Assembly (NCBI GenBank): GCA_044220615.1
Contig: JBGAQR010000005.1
Coordinates: 309,974-373,973 of the forward strand
Reading direction: 5' to 3'
Length of the DNA: 64,000 bases
DNA from: Ferruginibacter sp.
GTDB taxonomy: Bacteria; Bacteroidota; Bacteroidia; Chitinophagales; Chitinophagaceae
The notes under the pieces are model-generated. The model was not told the origin of the DNA. It did not search any database and saw nothing but the letters and a program-made list of their open reading frames with translations. The first letter of the stretch is position 1. Each line of letters opens with the position of its first letter. The position numbers and the translations under genes are program-made. Below, piece after piece: positions 6,488 through 52,636 of this stretch.

Positions 6488-7681
6488 ATGCAAACAGTTT
6501 ATGTAATTGATGCGGTACGTACCCCTATCGGAAAATATGGAGGTTCTTTGAGCGGGGTGAGACCGGATGACCTGCTGGCGCATGTAATTAAAGTGCTGCT
6601 GAGCCGTAACCCCAGCATTGATGTAAATGCCATTGAAGATGTGATTGCCGGCGCTGCCAACCAAAGCGGGGAAGATAACCGCAATGTGGCCCGTATGGCG
6701 GCATTGCTGGCGGGCTTACCAAATACGGTGGCGGGTAATACGGTGAACCGGCTTTGTGCCAGCGGATTGCAGGCCATTATGGATGCGGCCCGTGCCGTTG
6801 CCTGCGGTGATGGTGACCTGTTCATCGCCTGCGGCGTGGAGAGTATGAGCCGGGCACCCTTTGTGGTTCCTAAAAGTAACAGCGCTTTTGCAAGAGATCC
6901 GCAGATCGCTGATACAACCCTGGGCTGGCGTTTTGTAAATAAGCGGCTTGCCGAAATGTATTATCCCTACACCATGGGCGAAACAGCAGAGAATGTTGCC
7001 AAACGCTGGAACATCAGTCGACATGCGCAGGATGAGTTTGCATTGGAAAGCCAGCGTAAATACGAACGTGCCCTGGCAGAAAATAAATGGAAGGATGAAA
7101 TAACCCCGGTGCAGGTTCAGATAGAAAAAGAAGTGTTTGATTTTGATAAGGATGAACATCCCCGTTTAACAAGTTTAGAGAAACTGAAATTATTAAAACC
7201 TGCCTTTGCCAAAGACGGAACCGTTACTGCCGGCAACAGCAGTGGCATCAATGACGGGGCAGCCGCTATGTTGCTTGCCAGCGAAGCGGCAGTGATAAAA
7301 TACGGACTGCAGCCCATGGCAAAAATTGTAAGCATGGCGGTAGTGGGTGTTGATCCCGCCATCATGGGTATTGGCCCGGTGCCGGCTACCAACAAAGCAT
7401 TGGAAAGAGCAAAACTGAATGTGACCGACCTCGACCTGATAGAACTGAATGAAGCGTTTGCCTCACAATCCATTGCCTGCATACATGATCTTGGGTTAGA
7501 CCTGGAGAAAGTAAATGTGAATGGAGGAGCGATTGCACTTGGGCATCCGTTGGGGTGCAGCGGTGTTCGGATATCCACCACCTTACTTCATGAATTGAAA
7601 AGACGAAAAGGAAAATACGGGTTGGCTACGATGTGTGTGGGAGTGGGGCAAGGGGCTGCGGTTATTTATGAAGGGTTATAA
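6488..7681 (+). CDS. Acetyl-CoA C-acyl/acetyltransferase (thiolase)
   Basis: 397 aa. Active-site Cys NRLCASGLQA. C-terminal GGAIALGHPLGCSG and CVGVGQG. Confidence 0.9.
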   Translation: MQTVYVIDAVRTPIGKYGGSLSGVRPDDLLAHVIKVLLSRNPSIDVNAIEDVIAGAANQSGEDNRNVARMAALLAGLPNTVAGNTVNRLCASGLQAIMDAARAVACGDGDLFIACGVESMSRAPFVVPKSNSAFARDPQIADTTLGWRFVNKRLAEMYYPYTMGETAENVAKRWNISRHAQDEFALESQRKYERALAENKWKDEITPVQVQIEKEVFDFDKDEHPRLTSLEKLKLLKPAFAKDGTVTAGNSSGINDGAAAMLLASEAAVIKYGLQPMAKIVSMAVVGVDPAIMGIGPVPATNKALERAKLNVTDLDLIELNEAFASQSIACIHDLGLDLEKVNVNGGAIALGHPLGCSGVRISTTLLHELKRRKGKYGLATMCVGVGQGAAVIYEGL

Positions 7682-7709
7682 GGGTTCAATTAATCTCTAA
7701 CTAAAACTG

Positions 7710-7785
7710 TTGTCAGGTTGAGCTTGTCGAAACCGGTATGAGTATAAAGCGTTTTTAACCCGCCTTCGACAAGCTCAGGCTGACA
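7710..7785. terminator. REP-like inverted repeat TGTCAGGYTGAGCTTGTCGAA between convergent thiolase and hisS genes; probable bidirectional terminator
   Basis: Left arm at 7711-7733 and right arm at 7763-7785. The arms are complementary at about 19 of 23 positions, with a ~29-nt loop. Confidence 0.6.
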
Positions 7786-7804
7786 TTTCATTTGAAAAGG
7801 GGAG

Positions 7805-9172
7805 CTACAAATTCTTCAGGTAGTCAACCAGTTTTTCAAGCGCAACAACTTCCTGTACGCCTGTAGCCAGGTTTTTTACTGAACAATTCTTCTCTTCCAT
7901 TTCCTTACTGCCGATGATTATTACAAAAGGAATGTTTTTCTTTTCAGCATAAATGAATTGCTTATTGATCTTCACATTTTCGTGGTATAATTCACAGGCA
8001 ATGCCGCTGCTTCGGAGTTGTTGCATGATGCCGAAAGCAAAGCGGCTTTCTGCTTCACCCATATTAAAGAACAGTGCTTTTGTGCTTACCTGTAAATTCT
8101 CCGGGAACAGGTTCATTTCTTCCAGCACATCATATATCCTGTCTACGCCGAATGAGATACCAACTCCCGGGATATTGGGTACGCCGAATAAACCGGTAAG
8201 GTCATCGTAACGGCCGCCGCCGCCAATGCTGCCCATCTTTACTTCCTCAGGCGCTTTTGCTTCAAAGATGATACCCGTGTAATAATTCAATCCCCTTGCC
8301 AATGTAAAGTCGATGATGAGATTTGTATTTTTTGTTTGATCAAATACAAATTCCACTTCTTCAATTCCCTGCCTGCCGCTTTCTATTGAGCCGATCAAAG
8401 ACCGGATCGCCGATAGTTTTTGTTCGTTGCTTCCGGAAATGCTGAGATAGCGTTCAATTGTTTTTACCTGTTCATTATTCAAGCCACGTTGCTGCAGTTC
8501 TTCTTTTACTTTATCAAGCCCGATCTTATCCAGCTTATCAATGGCAATGGTGATTTCTGTCATCTTATCTGCACCGCCGCATAATTCAGCAAGCGCTGTT
8601 AAGATCTTACGGCTGTTAATTCTTAATTCATATTTCTTAATCCCCAACTGCACAAACACTTCGTGATAAATATTAGCCAGCTCCACTTCATTCACTAAGG
8701 AAAGACTTCCCACCACATCGGCATCGCATTGTGTAAACTCACGGTAGCGGCCCTTTTGCGGACGATCGGCACGCCATACCGGCTGGATCTGGTAGCGCCG
8801 GAACGGGAATGTGAGTTTGGTATGATTCATTGCCACATAGCGGGCAAAGGGAATGGTGAGATCGTACTTTAATGCTCTTTCAGTAATACCCTTTGTATTC
8901 TTCCCCTGCAATACTTTCTCAAAATCTTCTCTTAGTTGTTTCTCTTTTTCTGGATTATCCAGTCCGTTGTTCAGAATCTTGAAAATAAGTTTGTCGCCTT
9001 CTTCTCCATATTTCCCCATCAGTGTTTCCATATTTTCCATGGCCGGTGTTTCCAGCGGTTGAAAACCGTAGAGTTCAAATACATTTCTTATCGTAGAAAA
9101 AATATAATTCCTCTTTCGTACAACTTCTGCAGAAAAATCTCTTGTGCCCTGTGGAATGGATGGTTTGGTCAT
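7805..9172 (-). CDS. hisS: Histidine--tRNA ligase
   Basis: Motifs PQGTRDF, RYREFTQCDADV and GGGGRYD. Start set to MTKPSIPQGT (ATG at 9172). The 14 upstream codons of the ORF read through a repeat arm. Confidence 0.9.
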   Translation of the reverse strand: MTKPSIPQGTRDFSAEVVRKRNYIFSTIRNVFELYGFQPLETPAMENMETLMGKYGEEGDKLIFKILNNGLDNPEKEKQLREDFEKVLQGKNTKGITERALKYDLTIPFARYVAMNHTKLTFPFRRYQIQPVWRADRPQKGRYREFTQCDADVVGSLSLVNEVELANIYHEVFVQLGIKKYELRINSRKILTALAELCGGADKMTEITIAIDKLDKIGLDKVKEELQQRGLNNEQVKTIERYLSISGSNEQKLSAIRSLIGSIESGRQGIEEVEFVFDQTKNTNLIIDFTLARGLNYYTGIIFEAKAPEEVKMGSIGGGGRYDDLTGLFGVPNIPGVGISFGVDRIYDVLEEMNLFPENLQVSTKALFFNMGEAESRFAFGIMQQLRSSGIACELYHENVKINKQFIYAEKKNIPFVIIIGSKEMEEKNCSVKNLATGVQEVVALEKLVDYLKNL

Positions 9173-9174
9173 AT

Positions 9175-9640
9175 ACGTGAGTCGTGAATGGTGAGACGTG
9201 AGTTTAGTAAACAATCATTTTGCTAAGCATTTGAAAAGTTTTCAACATCAACGTTCCGGTTTCGGTTAATTCTTCTTTTTTAAGATATTCTAAATCAACT
9301 GCAATGTCAAAAATAGTGTCTATTTCAATTAATGAACCCCTGGATATTTCGTAAAATCTCCTTCTTTCAGCTACTGATTTTCTTGAACTTCCTTCAGCTA
9401 TATTTAACTGAACCGAAAGAGCCGCTCTTCTTAATTGTTGAACCATATTAAACCGCTCTTCATGTGGTAGTGATCTGGATATTTTGTAGCAGGCCAACAC
9501 AAAACTTTTGCCTGTTTTAAAAACATCCAGTTTGGTATGTGCCAGATCTAAAAACATAAAATTGAATTTCAATAATGAAGCAGAGAAATTTTATTTCTTA
9601 CGCTTGATCACTCACGATTGACGTTTCACGCCTCACGATT
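9175..9640. other. 466-bp inverted-repeat-bounded cassette carrying a four-helix-bundle ORF
   Basis: Arms are 9175-9203 (ACGTGAGTCGTGAATGGTGAGACGTGAGT) and 9610-9640 (ACTCACGATTGACGTTTCACGCCTCACGATT). Both are built from CGTGAG/CTCACG words, with roughly 22 of 29 positions complementary. The ORF fills the loop. Confidence 0.6.
9204..9557 (-). CDS. Four-helix-bundle protein (23S rRNA intervening-sequence protein family)
   Basis: Family motif QLRRAALSVQLNIAEGSSRKS...F..ISRGSL.E. ATG at 9557, with an alternative TTG at 9572. Confidence 0.8.
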   Translation of the reverse strand: MFLDLAHTKLDVFKTGKSFVLACYKISRSLPHEERFNMVQQLRRAALSVQLNIAEGSSRKSVAERRRFYEISRGSLIEIDTIFDIAVDLEYLKKEELTETGTLMLKTFQMLSKMIVY

Positions 9641-10074
9641 AGTTCGCAGGCTTCTTCAATGATGGTAAACACTTCATGGTATCCTTGCTCTGTTCCATAC
9701 CAGGGATCGGGCACATCACGGTCTTGCCCCGGGTAAACCTCGTTTAAAAACAAATCTACTTTAGTTGCGTCGAATTTATTGCGACTGATGCGTTTCATCT
9801 CTTCCAGCACATCGGTTGCCATGGCATAAATAAGATCGTATTGTTCAAAGTCGCCGGCAACAAAGCGCCTGCTTCGTTGCTGGCTGATATCAATGCCATT
9901 CTGCCTGGCCACTTTAATGCTTAAATGATGCGGCGGTTCGCCGGTATGGTACCCGTTGGTGCCGGCGCTTTCCACGGTCCAGTTCAACCCGGCCTTCCGG
10001 GCCTTATCCTGCAAAATACCTTCTGCCAACGGGCTGCGGCAGATATTGCCCAGGCAAACCATTAAAATTTTCAT
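9598..10074 (-). CDS. Low-molecular-weight protein tyrosine phosphatase
   Basis: P-loop CLGNICRSP and a DP motif (DVPDPWYG). Start set to MKILMVCLGN (10074). The last ~14 codons and the stop lie in the cassette arm. Confidence 0.88.
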   Translation of the reverse strand: MKILMVCLGNICRSPLAEGILQDKARKAGLNWTVESAGTNGYHTGEPPHHLSIKVARQNGIDISQQRSRRFVAGDFEQYDLIYAMATDVLEEMKRISRNKFDATKVDLFLNEVYPGQDRDVPDPWYGTEQGYHEVFTIIEEACELIVRRETSIVSDQA

Positions 10075-10087
10075 GGCGCAAAGATAA

Positions 10088-10190
10088 GCTGCAAGCCACA
10101 AGCTTCAAGGGGCAGTTTAATGAATAAGGTCTTCTTTATATTATGCTTGTCCCTTGTGGCTACTTTCCTTGAGTCTTCTTCCTTGTAGCT
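10088..10190. repeat. Word-level inverted repeat (GCAAGCCACAAGCTTCAAGG versus CCTTGTGGCT / CCTTGAG / CCTTGTAGCT) in a divergent promoter region
   Basis: The words CAAGCCACAAG/CTTGTGGCT and TTCAAGG/CCTTGA sit in opposite orientation around a ~33-nt AT-rich loop. Confidence 0.55.
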
Positions 10191-10252
10191 ATTCCCCGCT
10201 CTTTCTTTATGGAATCTCCATACTATCACATCTTACTACCGAACACGGCGCC

Positions 10253-10283
10253 GGTTTTGAATTTATTTTCTGACTTCAAAACC
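10253..10283 (+). promoter_or_regulatory. Perfect 9-bp inverted repeat GGTTTTGAA-N13-TTCAAAACC, ending 7 nt upstream of the tonB ATG
   Basis: Read directly: 10253-10261 and 10275-10283 are exact reverse complements. Confidence 0.5.
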
Positions 10284-10290
10284 CAACTAT

Positions 10291-14869: not shown

Positions 14870-14885
14870 AATCTGGTAATTAACC

Positions 14886-14965
14886 GATTTGAAAATTTGA
14901 AGATGATAAGAGACCTTGAATTCAGCAGGTATTAGATCATCACCAAATTACCAAATCATCAAATC
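14886..14965. repeat. Hairpin element in the nuoA-nuoB spacer (GATTTGAA / TTCAAATC word family)
   Basis: Left arm GATTTGAAAATTTGAAGATGAT (14886-14907) against ATCATCACCAAATTACCAAATC (14936-14957), 18 of 22 positions complementary. Flanked by GTAATTAA direct repeats. Confidence 0.75.
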
Positions 14966-14976
14966 AAGTAATTAAG

Positions 14977-15540: not shown

Positions 15541-15550
15541 ACTCCCTCCG

Positions 15551-15618
15551 CCCCCTAAAGGGGGAACTGGGGGTAAAATACTTTAATGAAATTAAAAGAT
15601 GCAAAGCCCCTTTAGGGG
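15551..15618. repeat. Two CCCCT(AA/TT)AGGGG palindromes in the nuoB-nuoC spacer
   Basis: CCCCCTAAAGGGGG at 15551-15564 and CCCCTTTAGGGG at 15607-15618. Each is followed by a TGGGG word. Confidence 0.7.
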
Positions 15619-15627
15619 TTTGGGGTT

Positions 15628-16125: not shown

Positions 16126-16128
16126 GTT

Positions 16129-16204
16129 GATTTGAAGATTTGGAAATTTGAAGATGTGCTGAAGCCATTACCAAATCACCAAATCATCAAATTTTCAAAT
16201 TGAT
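16129..16204. repeat. Hairpin element in the nuoC-nuoD spacer, same word family as the nuoA-nuoB element
   Basis: Shares the exact 13-mer AAATTTGAAGATG (16144-16156 and 14893-14905) and the exact 15-mer ACCAAATCATCAAAT (16178-16192 and 14950-14964) with the nuoA-nuoB spacer. Confidence 0.8.
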
Positions 16205-16209
16205 TATTT

Positions 16210-17975: not shown

Positions 17976-18401
17976 TTGAAGAAGTTCTTAACCATATTAT
18001 TCTTTTTTATTGCAGTCAACGGCTTTGCACAAACCGCAGATGAAGCAAAGCTGGTGCAAACAATGAAGGAATTTCACCAGGCCCTGGTTAATAAGAATAC
18101 GGTTTCTATCAACCAGCAAACAGATAAAGTGCTGAGCTATGGACACAGCAATGGCTGGGTGGAAACAAAAGCCGATGTGATCAAAGACCTGGAAACCGGG
18201 TATATCAGTTACCAGGGTTTTAAAGAAGACAGTATAACGGTTTCTATGAATGGTAATATGGCCAATGTCCGGTTTGTGGCAGATATAACAGCAACCATGA
18301 AGGGCGGAACCAATACCTATCATTTAAAAGTGCTGGAAGTGTGGGTGAAAAAAAGTAAACGGTGGGTGTTGTTTGCAAGGCAGGCGGTGAAGGCCCCCTA
18401 A
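17976..18401 (+). CDS. Secreted NTF2-fold (DUF4440/SnoaL-like) protein embedded in the nuo operon
   Basis: TTG start 3 nt after the nuoE stop. Signal peptide MKKFLTILFFFIAVNGFAQ. ~120-aa mature domain ending in the W.K...RW.L pattern typical of DUF4440-like proteins. Confidence 0.65.
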   Translation: MKKFLTILFFFIAVNGFAQTADEAKLVQTMKEFHQALVNKNTVSINQQTDKVLSYGHSNGWVETKADVIKDLETGYISYQGFKEDSITVSMNGNMANVRFVADITATMKGGTNTYHLKVLEVWVKKSKRWVLFARQAVKAP

Positions 18402-18515: not shown

Positions 18516-19871
18516 ATGAGTAGAAAATTATTATTAGAAAAAGCACATGTGGAAGGCATCCGCTATTACGACGTTTATCGCCGTGAGGGCGGATACCGCA
18601 GCGTGGAGAAGGCATTAAAGATGGCGCCGGCAGATATCGTGGAAGAAGTGAAGAAGAGCGGCTTGCGTGGACGAGGCGGCGCCGGTTTTCCTACAGGCTT
18701 AAAATGGAGTTTTATTGCAAAGCCCGAAGGCGTTCCCCGCCACCTGGTGGTAAATGCCGATGAAAGTGAGCCGGGAACGTTTAAAGACCGTTACCTGATG
18801 GAATTCATTCCGCATATCTTAATTGAAGGAATGATCGTTTCGTCATTTGCACTTGGCTCCAATGTTTCTTATATATACATACGCGGCGAATACCACTGGA
18901 TCGTTGATATTTTAGAACAGGCCATTGCCGAAGCAAAACAAAATGGTTTTTTGGGAAAGAATATTTTAGGCACCGGTTTCGATTGTGAAATTTATGTTCA
19001 CCGCGGCGCCGGCGCTTATATCTGCGGCGAAGAAACTGCCCTGATAGAATCACTGGAAGGCAAGCGGGGTAATCCAAGAATTAAACCACCGTTCCCGGCT
19101 GTAAAAGGCGCCTGGGAAAGACCTACGGTGGTTAATAATGTGGAAACGATCGCAGCCGTTGTTCCCATCATCAACAATGGCGGCGAAGAATATGCAAAGA
19201 TCGGCGTGGGAAAAAGCACCGGCACCAAACTGATGAGCGCCTGCGGTAATATCAACAAGCCGGGTGTTTATGAAATTGATATGACCATCTCGGTAGAAGA
19301 ATTTATTTACAGTGATGAATATTGTGGTGGTATTCCCAAAGGAAGAAAATTAAAAGCCTGTATCCCCGGCGGTTCATCGGTTCCAATTCTGCCGGCTAAT
19401 TTATTACTTACTACAGCTAAGGGAGAGAAGCGGCTGATGAACTATGAAAGTTTAAGCGATGGCGGTTTTGCAACAGGAAGTATGATGGGCAGCGGTGGAT
19501 TTATTGTACTGGATGATGCACAGTGTGTGGTAAAACATACATACACGCTGGCAAGGTTCTATCGCCATGAAAGTTGCGGACAATGTTCACCCTGCCGCGA
19601 AGGAACTGGATGGATGGAGAAAATATTACTGAATATAGATAATGGCAAAGGAAAGATGAGTGATATCGACCTGCTTTGGGATATTCAGCGCAAGATCGAA
19701 GGAAATACCATTTGTCCGCTGGGCGATGCAGCAGCCTGGCCGGTTGCGGCAGCCATTCGCCATTTCCGTGATGAGTTTGAGTGGCACGTGAACAATCCGG
19801 ATGAATGTTTAAGGAAGAATTACGGACTGGCGCATTATGCGGATCCGATTCATGTGCCAGTACCGGCATAG
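18516..19871 (+). CDS. nuoF: NADH-quinone oxidoreductase subunit F (FMN, 4Fe-4S)
   Basis: GLRGRGGAGFPTG (FMN/NADH site) and ESCGQCSPCREG (N3 cluster). Confidence 0.92.
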   Translation: MSRKLLLEKAHVEGIRYYDVYRREGGYRSVEKALKMAPADIVEEVKKSGLRGRGGAGFPTGLKWSFIAKPEGVPRHLVVNADESEPGTFKDRYLMEFIPHILIEGMIVSSFALGSNVSYIYIRGEYHWIVDILEQAIAEAKQNGFLGKNILGTGFDCEIYVHRGAGAYICGEETALIESLEGKRGNPRIKPPFPAVKGAWERPTVVNNVETIAAVVPIINNGGEEYAKIGVGKSTGTKLMSACGNINKPGVYEIDMTISVEEFIYSDEYCGGIPKGRKLKACIPGGSSVPILPANLLLTTAKGEKRLMNYESLSDGGFATGSMMGSGGFIVLDDAQCVVKHTYTLARFYRHESCGQCSPCREGTGWMEKILLNIDNGKGKMSDIDLLWDIQRKIEGNTICPLGDAAAWPVAAAIRHFRDEFEWHVNNPDECLRKNYGLAHYADPIHVPVPA

Positions 19872-19872
19872 A

Positions 19873-20331
19873 TTTCACGCAAAGAGCGCAAAGGAGCAAG
19901 GATGCAAAGAAGAGTATGACAGAAAACGAGATATCAAAAATAGTTTTTGATTTATGTGTATTGGTTCATAAAAAGTATGGGCCGGGATTATTTGAAAATG
20001 TTTATGAAGAAATAATTTGTCATGAATTAAATAAATTAGAAATCCCTTTCACCCGGCAGCAAGGGATTCCTTTGATACATGATGAAATTAGAATGGAAAT
20101 CGGATTCAGGGCAGATATAATAGTTGAGAATAAAGTCATTTTGGAATTGAAATCGATCGAGGCATTAGCTGAAATTCATTATAAGCAATTGCTGACTTAT
20201 TTGAAACTAACAGATATTAAATTAGGAATGTTGATCAACTTTAATGTTCCGCTTATTAAAGATGGAATACACCGTATTGTAAATAAACTATAAAACTTGC
20301 GCCTTTGCTCCTTTGCGAACATTGCGTGAAA
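19873..20331. other. 459-bp inverted-repeat-bounded cassette carrying a GxxExxY ORF; fills the nuoF-nuoG junction
   Basis: Arms are 19873-19899 TTTCACGCAAagagCGCAAAGGAGCAA and 20305-20331 TTGCTCCTTTGCGaacaTTGCGTGAAA, with 23 of 27 positions complementary. It starts 1 nt after the nuoF stop and ends 5 nt before the nuoG ATG. Confidence 0.65.
19916..20293 (+). CDS. GxxExxY protein (PD-(D/E)XK nuclease-like small protein family)
   Basis: 125 aa. GLFENVY signature and ADIIVENKVILELKS (D...ExK). Start trimmed to the ATG at 19916, because the longer ORF overlaps nuoF and reads through the repeat arm. Confidence 0.8.
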   Translation: MTENEISKIVFDLCVLVHKKYGPGLFENVYEEIICHELNKLEIPFTRQQGIPLIHDEIRMEIGFRADIIVENKVILELKSIEALAEIHYKQLLTYLKLTDIKLGMLINFNVPLIKDGIHRIVNKL

Positions 20332-20336
20332 CAAAT

Positions 20337-21467
20337 ATGGCAGACGAAATAAAAAAAGAAGCACCTGCAAATTTTAAAGTAACCATCGACAACATCACGA
20401 TCGAAGTTGCGCCGGGTACTACTATATTAAATGCAGCCCGGCAGATCGGTGGAGACGTTACACCGCCTGCCATGTGCTATTACAGCAAGTTACAGGGCAG
20501 TGGCGGTAAATGCCGCACCTGCCTGGTGGAAGTGGCTGCCGGTTCAACCGCCGACCCAAGGCCTATGCCTAAATTAGTTGCCTCATGCCGTACCAATGTA
20601 ATGGATGGCATGGTGGTAAAAAATATTACCAGCGATAAAGTAACGGATGCAAGAAATGGCGTGGTTGAATTCTTGCTCATTAATCACCCGTTGGATTGCC
20701 CCATCTGCGACCAGGCCGGCGAATGTCATTTGCAGGACCTCGGTTATGACCATGGTAAAGAAGGCACACGCTACGAATTTAAAAGAAGAACATTCGAGAA
20801 GGAAGATATCGGCCCATACATCCAGTTGCACATGACAAGGTGTATCCTCTGTTATCGCTGCACTTATGTTGCTGATCAATTGACCGATAAAAGAGTACAT
20901 GGTATTTTAGACCGCGGCGATCATGCAGAAATATCAACCTATATTTCCAAAGCCATTGATAATGATTTCAGCGGGAATATGATCGATGTTTGCCCGGTAG
21001 GTGCATTAACCGATAAAACATTCCGCTTTAAGAACAGGGTTTGGTTCACCAAACCGGTGGATGCTCACCGCAATTGCGAAAACCCTAAATGCTGCGGCAA
21101 AGCAACCTTATGGTTACGTGGCGATGAAGTGTACCGTGTTACCGCACGTAAAGACGAATGGGGCGAAGTGCAGAGTTATGATGGTAAACCCGGATGGATC
21201 TGCAATACCTGCCGCTTTGATAAAAAGAAAACGGCTGACTGGACCGTAGAAGGATTAACAACCATCAGCCGGCATTCGGTTATTGGCGCCAATAAATACA
21301 GCGGGCTGGAAATGCCGAAAGATACTGTTAAGGAAGTGATGGGTGGAAGAGATCCAAAGCTGCTGATGGATATTCACAAGGTGAGTGGAGTGAATGATCC
21401 CGGCATCAATTTAAGTGCGATCAACCGGCCGGCGCACAGCGATGACTTTTCAAAGAACGGAAAATAA
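20337..21467 (+). CDS. nuoG: NADH-quinone oxidoreductase subunit G, short form (Fe-S domains only)
   Basis: 2Fe-2S CYYSKLQGSGGKCRTC, His(Cys)3 cluster HPLDCPICDQAGEC, and 4Fe-4S CILCYRC...CP. Only 376 aa, so it lacks the molybdopterin-like domain. Confidence 0.85.
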   Translation: MADEIKKEAPANFKVTIDNITIEVAPGTTILNAARQIGGDVTPPAMCYYSKLQGSGGKCRTCLVEVAAGSTADPRPMPKLVASCRTNVMDGMVVKNITSDKVTDARNGVVEFLLINHPLDCPICDQAGECHLQDLGYDHGKEGTRYEFKRRTFEKEDIGPYIQLHMTRCILCYRCTYVADQLTDKRVHGILDRGDHAEISTYISKAIDNDFSGNMIDVCPVGALTDKTFRFKNRVWFTKPVDAHRNCENPKCCGKATLWLRGDEVYRVTARKDEWGEVQSYDGKPGWICNTCRFDKKKTADWTVEGLTTISRHSVIGANKYSGLEMPKDTVKEVMGGRDPKLLMDIHKVSGVNDPGINLSAINRPAHSDDFSKNGK

Positions 21468-23667: not shown

Positions 23668-23742
23668 CACGAATTGAAACGAATTACACGAAGTGATTTA
23701 AAATGGATAGTAGATAATTCGTGTAATTGGTGTAATTCGATT
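23668..23742. repeat. Hairpin element in the nuoJ-nuoK spacer (CGAATTACACGAA / TTCGTGTAATTCG words)
   Basis: Left arm 23668-23692 and right arm 23718-23742. An 11-nt block and a 6-nt block are exactly complementary. The element starts at the base after the nuoJ stop. Confidence 0.75.
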
Positions 23743-23757
23743 AATTAGTGAACTAGT

Positions 23758-24090: not shown

Positions 24091-24096
24091 GCCCCA

Positions 24097-24116
24097 TCTC
24101 CGCCAACTGGCGGAGA
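24097..24116 (+). repeat. GC hairpin TCTCCGCC-AACT-GGCGGAGA
   Basis: 8-bp perfect stem, 6 nt after the nuoK stop. Confidence 0.8.
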
Positions 24117-24162
24117 GAAAGGCAGGAGTATTAATAATATTTTGAAATAAAAACAAAAATTC

Positions 24163-24178
24163 TCCGCCAACCGGCGGA
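24163..24178 (+). repeat. GC hairpin TCCGCC-AACC-GGCGGA, followed by ATAGGGGT and the nuoL ATG
   Basis: 6-bp perfect stem. ATAGGGGT at 24179-24186 and the ATG at 24187. Confidence 0.8.
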
Positions 24179-24186
24179 ATAGGGGT

Positions 24187-33664: not shown

Positions 33665-33689
33665 GATCAACAGTTATAAAAGCGGATTA

Positions 33690-33729
33690 AAAAGAATTGC
33701 CCCGGACTTAAGTCCGGGGCAATTCTTTT
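33690..33729 (+). terminator. Perfect 40-nt palindromic terminator AAAAGAATTGCCCCGGACTT/AAGTCCGGGGCAATTCTTTT
   Basis: The two 20-nt halves are exact reverse complements. The core is GC-rich, with an A-run on the 5' side and a T-run on the 3' side. Confidence 0.85.
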
Positions 33730-33771
33730 GTGGAAACACCTGCTTCTACCGTCTTAATAAAAACTAATGTT

Positions 33772-44989: not shown

Positions 44990-45120
44990 AAGCCCCTTCC
45001 GGCAGGTTCATCAGGTAAATCCCGGAAAACAGCTATTCCCCGGCCCGTAAGGGTTTAAGGAATCGGGTTTTTCAAAAAAAAATAATTAACAAAAAATTGG
45101 TATTAACGAAAAAAGCCCTA

Positions 45121-45167
45121 CTTTGCGTAAGTTTTACACATTTTGAGTGTGTAAAAAGTACGCAAAG
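45121..45167. promoter_or_regulatory. 47-bp near-perfect palindrome upstream of susC (candidate operator or 5'-UTR hairpin)
   Basis: CTTTGCGTAAGTTTTACACA - TTTTGAG - TGTGTAAAAAGTACGCAAAG. 18 of 20 arm positions are complementary. It ends 35 nt before the susC ATG. Confidence 0.7.
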
Positions 45168-45202
45168 TGATTGCAAATTTTTAAAACGAAACGCTTGTTA
45201 TT

Positions 45203-52553: not shown

Positions 52554-52577
52554 GTTTTGATCTTTCATGTGTTTTGT

Positions 52578-52614
52578 AAAAGAGCCATCCCGACAAAGTC
52601 GGGATGGCTCTTTT
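52578..52614. terminator. Bidirectional terminator with a 17-bp perfect stem
   Basis: AAAAGAGCCATCCCGAC-AAA-GTCGGGATGGCTCTTTT, between convergent genes. Confidence 0.88.
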
Positions 52615-52636
52615 CTTATATACCGGTTAATTAAGT

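Follow-up and report, generated by a model that had tools for sequence, protein, structure and literature searches.

A GxxExxY cassette with tandem-word arms in the nuoF-nuoG junction of a Ferruginibacter nuo operon: a candidate selfish element decaying into hairpins

The junction between nuoF and nuoG in a 64,000-nt stretch of DNA from Ferruginibacter sp. (GenBank assembly GCA_044220615.1, contig JBGAQR010000005.1, positions 309,974 to 373,973; the whole stretch is called the window) is filled by a single 459-bp unit. The unit is a small open reading frame (ORF) of the GxxExxY family enclosed by two arms, terminal inverted repeats made of tandem 8-9-nt words. In other loci, this architecture recurs with conserved words and with compensatory changes between the arms. 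The ORF is co-oriented with its neighbours, low in guanine and cytosine (GC) and under purifying selection. At the nuoF-nuoG junction of relatives, the unit is present or absent, occurs in intermediate states of decay and is replaced by other lineages. These features fit a selfish DNA cassette that is expressed by read-through and decays into hairpins, a reading to which a probability of about one half is assigned. The unit would move as DNA, and the tandem words would serve in recognition, with the protein of the cassette itself as the most economical candidate for the reader of these sites. The RNA stem formed by the arms would be a tolerated or exploited consequence and not the primary selected feature.

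The operon is a Chitinophagaceae (Ferruginibacter-like) nuo operon, with top NuoF matches in Chitinophagaceae and Ferruginibacter genomes at identities of up to 96%. The upstream host gene nuoF (18516..19871, plus strand; TIGR01959, 7e-175) ends with the stop codon TAG at 19869-19871. The downstream host gene nuoG (20337..21467, plus strand; TIGR01973, 1.5e-84) starts with an ATG at 20337. The 465-nt gap is occupied by the left arm (19873..19907, plus strand), which reads TTTCACGCAAAG-aG-CGCAAAG-GA-GCAAG-GAT-GCAA in words of the nCGCAAAG type, by the 125-codon GxxExxY/PDDEXK_3 gene (19916..20293, plus strand) and by the right arm (20297..20331, plus strand), which reads TTGCGCCTTTGCTCCTTTGCGAACATTGCGTGAAA with the mirror words CTTTGCG and the terminal GCGTGAAA. 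The left arm follows the nuoF stop at a distance of one base, and the nuoG ATG comes five bases past the right arm. The exact fit of one unit into the junction, described in an earlier note made from the sequence alone, was borne out in its coordinates. That note had also counted 23 of 27 complementary positions between 19873-19899 and 20305-20331; the arms were confirmed and the count was corrected to 24 of 27. Extended to 19873-19907 and 20297-20331, the arms form a 35-nt inverted repeat with 29 of 35 complementary positions (83%). With the two copies within 700 nt of each other, no inverted repeat in the window is longer. The word pair CGCAAAGN{1,4}GCAAAG matches the window twice, against 0.01 matches expected, and both matches are inside these arms. 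An ordinary small gene next to a fortuitous inverted repeat would be conceivable from the frequency of short inverted repeats. Such a chance origin is refuted by the length of this repeat in the window, the expectation for the word pair and the family-wide recurrence in dozens of independent loci; its probability is negligible.

The GxxExxY ORF has a GC content of 29.9%, compared to 46.9% for nuoF and nuoG. Its assignment to the family, proposed earlier from the motif, is supported by profile matches above the cutoffs: TIGR04256 with 2.1e-38 and 131.3 bits (cutoff 35; positions 2-116 of the 116-position profile) and PF13366 (PDDEXK_3) with 1.9e-36 and 125.4 bits (cutoff 22). The motif GLFENVY covers residues 24-30 (G24, E27, Y30), and the D...ExK block consists of D67, E77 and K79. 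Comparison with 11 diverged and 35 close homologues showed D67, E77 and K79 to be invariant; E27, Q91 and Y95 are invariant residues as well. Ratios of nonsynonymous to synonymous substitution rates (dN/dS) of 0.06-0.12 in orthologous pairs place the ORF under purifying selection. An AlphaFold2 model (predicted local distance difference test score 83) has the order alpha-alpha-beta-beta-beta-alpha-beta. Best Foldseek matches were all of the PD-(D/E)XK type, namely Cas4 SSO0001, lambda exonuclease and tRNA-splicing endonuclease, at weak scores (E >= 0.013, TM 0.37-0.47). The cargo may be a minimal PD-(D/E)XK nuclease-type protein with a putative nuclease activity.

The family is large, with at least 14,840 clusters at 50% identity (E <= 1e-3) from several phyla. 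It is essentially chromosomal: phage records gave no match, and large plasmids or chromids gave eight distant ones. The ORF has a lower GC content than its flanks in 66 of 67 loci (medians 32% and 43%), and its GC content still follows that of the host (r = 0.80). Tandem-domain or fused forms also exist; P0121, P0123, P0124, P0131 and others are 265-295 amino acids long and carry two GxxExxY stretches. A literature search on GxxExxY, PDDEXK_3, the protein families of intervening sequences (IVSs) and the arm sequences, which covered few subscription-journal papers, retrieved no description of these cassettes, and with the same coverage no biochemical report on a GxxExxY protein.

The arms were studied in two sets of 80 loci, one of GxxExxY genes in metagenomes and one of nuoF in genomes. 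Flanks were long enough for an inverted-repeat test in 79 cassettes on contigs other than that of the window (75 GxxExxY and 4 four-helix-bundle cassettes, the latter treated below), with a threshold of z > 3. Inverted repeats between upstream and downstream flank above this threshold were present in 85% of the cassettes and in 4.7% of 898 other genes of the same loci; the median z of GxxExxY cassettes was 9. Inverted word repeats are thus a property of the family. The left-arm consensus is TTTCACGCAAAG-nCGCAAAG-nCGCAAAG, that is, the outermost word TTTCACGCAAAG followed by two or three further nCGCAAAG words, and the mirrored right arm ends with CTTTGCGTGAAA. The majority of GxxExxY cassettes from other loci share this consensus. 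It was seen in two topologies, at nuoF-nuoG as well as at no fewer than three further recurrent and unrelated junctions, and across contigs with a flank GC content of 29-63%. Conservation of the words over unrelated junctions and differing GC contents points to sequence-specific recognition and not to pairing alone.

Complementarity is maintained while the words change. The variants GCAGAG, GCAGCG, CACAAAG and TCTCGC change jointly on both arms. In 24 terminus-anchored arm pairs, 82% of the cells were paired, in comparison to 70% in shuffled pairs (0 of 500 shuffles as high) and 35-49% with the partner slid; 15 of the 24 pairs had changes on both sides. The arms of the window cassette, of L164 (Ferruginibacter sp. 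SUN002) and of L028 share about 80% identity at a distance where synonymous change in the ORF has reached saturation, and their differences include compensatory double changes from GCAAAG/CTTTGC to GCTAAG/CTTAGC. The spacers separating the words frequently contain non-complementary positions. Word variant and protein lineage are weakly but significantly associated (p = 0.0005).

The placement of the cassettes is tight. Left arms begin 1-10 nt past the upstream stop codon, and right arms end 4-25 nt ahead of the downstream ATG. Among the cassettes with two called neighbours, 40 of 45 are co-oriented with both, and the median gaps of 54 and 49 nt on the two sides correspond to the arm itself. 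Distances between left and right arms are bimodal over about 1 Mb of loci: 29 pairs are less than 100 nt apart, 5 are at 100-300 nt and 55 at 300-520 nt. Three topologies were seen, L-ORF-R, R-ORF-L and L-R-ORF-L-R.

The flipped topology (L045, L126, L128, L133, L153, L163 and L144) has a CTTTGCG...GTGAAA arm upstream of the ORF and a TCACGCAAAG... arm downstream, so that the conserved TTTCAC termini point toward the ORF. It occurs mostly on the contigs with the highest GC content, which probably come from other phyla. Complete hairpins on both sides of the ORF were observed in L105, L125, L127 and L160.

Turnover at nuoF-nuoG was surveyed in 79 species-level Chitinophagaceae relatives. The junction is empty (0-67 nt) in 40 of them. 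An intact GxxExxY cassette is present in 10 and a decayed one in 3; intact and decayed four-helix-bundle cassettes account for 6 and 2. About 6 relatives have an ORF-less hairpin with CGCAAAG-type arms, 8 have unrelated genes without arms, and the remaining few have other ORF-less inserts. The closest relative, L004 (NuoF identity 96%), has an empty junction with a 24-nt spacer, and L007 (Ferruginibacter sp. SUN106), L008 and L009 are likewise empty. Presence/absence variation with empty sites is thus evident among orthologous junctions.

Several states of decay were found. The ORFs of L028, which is 83% identical to the window protein, and of L075 are frameshifted. L026 has a 217-nt remnant with both arms and the final 35 codons. 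In L042, the loop of an ORF-less hairpin reads AATAATTTATAA, which is the usual N-N-L-stop end of the ORF. Lineage replacement is visible between close hosts: L087 and L096 share 96.9% of NuoF and 68% of the GxxExxY protein and differ in word type, and L114 and L012 share 93.5% of NuoF and 55% of GxxExxY. Over 253 pairs, NuoF and GxxExxY identities were uncorrelated (rho = -0.05), a comparison of limited power because NuoF is conserved at 81-98% identity. With that limit, the cassette lineage does not track the host lineage.

The arm-less genes in the junction encode AAA_15/AAA_21 ATPases, MNT/HEPN proteins, an FkbM methyltransferase and proteins of about 280 amino acids. None of these larger inserts has arms, which makes the arms specific to the two small-ORF families. 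The defence-like inserts are tightly packed and co-oriented (L005:5351-6879, L011:5360-6935, L065:5354-6920, L035:5354-6601 and L016:1448-2264) and comprise an AAA_15/AAA_21 ATPase together with its partner ORF, a nucleotidyltransferase paired with a HEPN gene, and an FkbM methyltransferase. The junction resembles a general hotspot of integration within an operon. Variability at nuoE-nuoF equals that at nuoF-nuoG, with at least 351 nt in 39 of 75 relatives among loci L004-L083; the window has a DUF4440-type ORF there (17976-18401). In L004, a 524-nt insert between nuoD and nuoE encodes a small signal-peptide-like protein.

The transcript of the junction was predicted to fold by arm pairing. 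For 19860-20345, arm pairs with arm in both the minimum free energy (MFE) and the centroid structure. The folding energy of -122.6 kcal/mol compares to -96.1 +/- 4.4 kcal/mol for shuffled sequences (z = -6.1; 0 of 100 shuffles as stable), so arm-arm pairing dominates over the shuffled controls. Promoter-like and terminator-like sites around the cassette were not in excess over chance. The earlier note had described the cassette as co-oriented with nuo and free of terminators on either side, which holds here and, in orientation, family-wide. A cassette without its own promoter or terminator would depend on read-through for expression.

The fold raises the question of whether the RNA is the selected form. 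An IVS-like element, the reading of the earlier note, may be kept for its stem in the nuo mRNA, and RNase III or the cassette protein would cut there, setting the ORF RNA free and splitting nuoA-F from nuoG-N without religation, as is the case for 23S rRNA IVSs with an ORF. This explanation is unlikely, with a range of observations in its favour. The strength of the predicted fold, the compensatory changes in the arms and the strong sense co-orientation agree with it. As the arms adjoin the stop and start codons, a short spacer would be restored in the folded RNA. Relatives carry a 23S_rRNA_IVP family protein at the same junction in the same layout, and tRNA-splicing endonucleases are among the weak structural matches. 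The stem of the Coxiella IVS, which is cut by RNase III, has three tandem heptamers (GACAGAT; PMC4990558). Correia element hairpins in Neisseria mRNAs bind RNase III and are cut by it or protected (PMC2649163).

Evidence on the arms themselves speaks against a primary role of RNA. Mismatches on the sense strand comprised 70 of the G.U type and 79 of the A.C type, and duplex energies were near-equal in sense (-53.1 kcal/mol) and antisense (-52.4 kcal/mol). Lacking a G.U excess, the arms give no sign of selection on an RNA stem rather than on inverted symmetry of the DNA, although the wobble test is not decisive because most mismatches lie in non-conserved spacer positions. Spacers between words are often unpaired while the words are conserved across distant hosts, which a pure pairing constraint does not predict. 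An Rfam search had no family match anywhere in the window. The IVS-like character proposed in the earlier note stands for architecture, mobility-like turnover and kinship to IVSs, and RNA excision is not favoured by the wobble comparison, an indirect test. Since the cassette sits between nuoF and nuoG and not in rRNA, it is by definition not an IVS. The analogy gains weight from the four-helix-bundle (23S_rRNA_IVP) genes at the same junction and from the heptamers of the Coxiella stem.

The focal cassette is less special than the earlier note implied, as other junctions of the same operon carry ORF-less word hairpins. At least four other nuo junctions of the window do so, nuoA-B, C-D, J-K and K-L, with fold z values of -2.9 to -5.8. 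GATTTGA/TCAAATC words form the hairpins at nuoA-B (14870-14976) and nuoC-D (16126-16209), ACGAATT words the one at nuoJ-K (23668-23757), and nested TCTCCGCCAAC..GGCGGAGA arms the one at nuoK-L (24091-24186). At nuoB-C (15541-15627), the hairpin has palindromes of the CCCCTAAAGGGG type. The nuoJ-K spacer is 90 nt in the window and 6 nt in L004, a clean 84-nt indel in flanks of about 90% identity. L004 has hairpins of CAAAAGT words at three nuo junctions (576-659, 1161-1255 and 9099-9172) with unrelated loops; CAAAAGT is also the word type of four-helix-bundle cassettes at nuoF-nuoG elsewhere. Since the members of a word family are alike in the word only, simple copy-and-paste as in families of MITEs (miniature transposable elements with inverted repeats) does not explain them.

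These hairpins bring the host into consideration. They could be ordinary intercistronic elements of mRNA stability, processing or translation in Chitinophagaceae operons, and GxxExxY and four-helix genes could be useful accessory genes, for example in defence or nucleic-acid housekeeping, that are swapped at a recombination hotspot, where homologous recombination would act in the conserved nuo genes on either side. Hairpins without ORFs at the window junctions and at several in relatives are in agreement with this, as are the strong purifying selection on the protein, the arm-less defence-like genes in the same junction and the equal variability of nuoE-nuoF. TAACTGA-type heptamer repeats near start codons of Beggiatoaceae, Cyanobacteria and Bacteroidetes are unexplained and were proposed as regulator binding sites (PMC4679880). 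A host function is nevertheless quite improbable. The hairpins are unconserved even between close relatives, as at nuoJ-K, and 40 relatives manage with an empty nuoF-nuoG spacer. The GC content of the cargo is systematically below that of the host, pseudogenisation at the junction is frequent, and CGCAAAG arms accompany GxxExxY genes to unrelated junctions and hosts.

Further repeats were observed in L042 and in the window outside the nuo junctions. In L042, complementary arrays of the ATGTGAAA and CGTGAGAC types (482-520, 1113-1255, 6631-6660 and 7766-7845) bracket NuoB and NuoH and could pair across the whole host gene in RNA. Bracketing of host genes (NuoB and NuoH in L042, NuoF in L057) was considered as a third topology and rejected as a by-product of same-word hairpins at adjacent junctions. 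The divergent intergenic region 10075-10290 of the window has a long word-array hairpin (GCAAGCCACAAGCTTCAAGG / CCTTGTGGCTAC..CCTTGTAGC; fold z = -6.1). Strong hairpins lie downstream of genes in 7682-7804 (26-nt arms, 7711-7785), 33665-33771 (a perfect 20-nt palindrome, 33690-33729), 45120-45168 (21-nt arms spanning this interval) and 52554-52636 (a terminator-like stem, 52578-52614). They are probably ordinary terminators or belong to other repeat families.

A second cassette with a different cargo is present in the window, at 9175-9640 as indicated by the earlier note. It is located on the minus strand between a phosphatase-like ORF and hisS, which share its orientation. The cargo is a four-helix-bundle protein (9204..9572, minus strand; TIGR02436, 2.8e-27; GC 32.8%). 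The ORF-distal 3' arm (9176..9203, minus strand; CGTGAGTCGTGAATGGTGAGACGTGAGT on the plus strand) is 3 nt from the hisS ATG (9172), and the 5' arm (9610..9637, minus strand; ACTCACGATTGACGTTTCACGCCTCACG on the plus strand) shares sequence with the final ~13 codons called for the phosphatase-like ORF upstream of it. The arms consist of CGTGAG/CGTGAA words and are paired in the MFE structure. The fold of the whole region is unexceptional (z = -0.8); the flank inverted-repeat z is 3.3 to 4.7. The arm design recurs in each of the eight four-helix-bundle cassettes that could be tested, with lineage-specific words, CAAAAGT, GAATAGTGATT or CGTGAG. Four-helix-bundle genes (Pfam 23S_rRNA_IVP) occupy nuoF-nuoG in other species with the same architecture.

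Both families coexist in one genome, the window included, and are close on single contigs in L135 (1431-1826 and 2456-2875) and L072 (83-445 and 4183-4572). The arms of cassette 2 disturb gene calling. The phosphatase-like ORF (9598-10101, minus strand) enters the cassette arm by ~13 codons as called. The longest hisS ORF begins at a TTG (9214) inside the cassette and is called 14 codons too long; its start is likely the ATG at 9172.

One architecture for two unrelated cargo families would be expected if the arms were structure-specific recombination sites, comparable to attC or REPINs, of an enzyme encoded elsewhere (a tyrosine recombinase, RAYT/HUH or similar), with GxxExxY and four-helix genes as the commonest cargo. 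ORF-less versions exist, the arms of four-helix cassettes vary in sequence and not in design, as attC sites do, and all three topologies occur. Mobilisation in trans is still very doubtful. No recombinase was next to any cassette examined; the neighbours are housekeeping genes. Arms are on both sides of the ORF, unlike the one-sided attC, and the arm sequence of GxxExxY cassettes is strongly conserved, unlike that of structure-only sites. Cassette arrays were not seen among the loci examined.

A cycle can be proposed for the selfish DNA cassette. The two arms, each of three or four tandem 8-9-nt words, and the ORF of about 125 codons would be inherited as one unit. The unit would persist in intercistronic operon spacers in sense orientation and be expressed here within the nuoA-N transcript. 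In this transcript, the arms may pair and loop out the ORF. The distance from the nuoF stop to the nuoG start would then be roughly that of an empty junction, which would make the insertion tolerable. Pairing would also create a duplex of no fewer than 22 bp, similar to those that RNase III cuts in rRNA IVSs and Correia elements; RNase III excision of the cassette is plausible. An intact ORF would acquire frameshifts, then an internal deletion, and would end as an ORF-less hairpin and finally an empty site. The emptied site could be re-occupied by another GxxExxY lineage, a four-helix-bundle cassette or unrelated genes.

Several observations weigh against the selfish cassette. Further copies of the CGCAAAG arms were absent from the rest of the 64-kb window, and the hairpins within one genome, L004 or the window, have words in common and neither loops nor exact arms. 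An identical protein in different contexts was not found; P0030 (23 contigs) and P0100 (12 contigs) each have one context. No target-site duplication was apparent at nuoF-nuoG or nuoJ-K in comparison to the empty L004 sites, whose spacers have also diverged. The narrow range of NuoF identities weakens the apparent independence of cassette and host. As the junction accepts arm-less genes, it could be a general recombination hotspot with homologous exchange that needs no element-encoded mobility. The resemblance of the protein to solved nucleases is weak (best Foldseek E = 0.013), and a sequence search of the PDB had no solved relative. To our knowledge, a 125-residue PD-(D/E)XK protein alone does not transpose. 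The four-helix cargo lacks a nuclease fold, and it follows that either mobilisation is the work of an enzyme other than the cargo, or the same design was reached independently by two unrelated proteins.

The cassettes represent a very large and apparently undescribed class. GxxExxY cassettes, four-helix cassettes and word hairpins might even be one large undescribed class of mobile elements in which the protein recognises its own arm words and drives either the mobility of the DNA or the excision of the RNA. The classical 23S IVS with an ORF would then be the same element in rRNA, and the heptamer arrays found between genes of Cyanobacteria, Beggiatoaceae and Bacteroidetes would be its footprints. 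This wider unification is tentative and rather less than an even bet. The GxxExxY and four-helix-bundle families are among the commonest small genes of unknown function in Bacteroidota and Cyanobacteria and have no accepted role. Through a defined cassette bounded by inverted words, with a cycle of gain, decay and loss, both families acquire a concrete biology that can be tested. The cassette also suggests an origin for the rRNA IVSs, a puzzle of source and mobility since 1990, and may account for hairpins and heptamer arrays in operon junctions of these phyla. On the practical side, cassette arms mislead the calling of start and stop codons, as in hisS and the phosphatase-like ORF. Long stems in the mRNAs of essential operons likely affect the processing and stoichiometry of complex I subunits.

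Known systems share parts of this architecture; the cassette itself is neither an integron cassette nor a classical MITE. Integron gene cassettes are also promoterless single-gene units in sense orientation with read-through expression and with imperfect palindromes whose structure defines them more than their sequence does. They differ in the one-sided attC, where the cassettes described here have arms on both sides; the intI/attI platform that integrons need close by and the arrays that they form are missing here, and the neighbours are nuoF and nuoG. Free-standing homing endonuclease genes are similarly small nuclease-fold genes between conserved genes. Diverged copies occupy one site in many species, intact copies coexist with frameshifted, deleted and empty forms, and the tree of the cargo is decoupled from that of the host. 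Unlike them, the cassettes have terminal inverted repeats, and the four-helix cassettes behave alike without a nuclease fold.

Correia/CREE, ERIC and REP/REPIN elements have in common with the cassettes the terminal inverted repeats, the location in operon spacers, the hairpins in mRNA and the variable presence among close relatives. Hairpins without an ORF, 85-94 nt long in the present loci, resemble this MITE-like class. The cassettes are distinguished by a conserved protein gene and by arms that are arrays of tandem 8-9-nt words and not a unique terminal repeat. A TA or other target duplication was not seen at the sites compared, and copies within a genome share words and not the whole sequence. 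We know of no cognate transposase for these cassettes. Heptamer arrays, the cyanobacterial STRR and TAACTGA repeats, are likewise tandem words of 7-9 nt a few bases from start codons with a patchy distribution in the same phyla. They were reported as direct repeats, with neither gene-enclosing inverted pairs nor a link to GxxExxY or four-helix genes (PMC4679880).

The ORF-bearing 23S rRNA IVSs of Leptospira, Coxiella and Xanthomonas are compared last. The focal cassette differs from them in its location between protein genes of an mRNA operon and not in an rRNA helix; neither rRNA genes nor Rfam families were found in the window. Its cargo is a PD-(D/E)XK-type GxxExxY protein instead of an S23p/four-helix bundle and is under strong purifying selection, unlike the S23p of Coxiella, which is decaying and apparently untranslated. 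The design is shared: a unit of about 400-500 nt carries a small sense ORF between inverted repeats that pair into a long stem, the stem contains short tandem repeats, the unit lacks a promoter, its presence or absence is sporadic, and its ORF decays. Cassette 2 and the nuoF-nuoG cassettes of 8 relatives encode the protein family of the IVS ORF itself.

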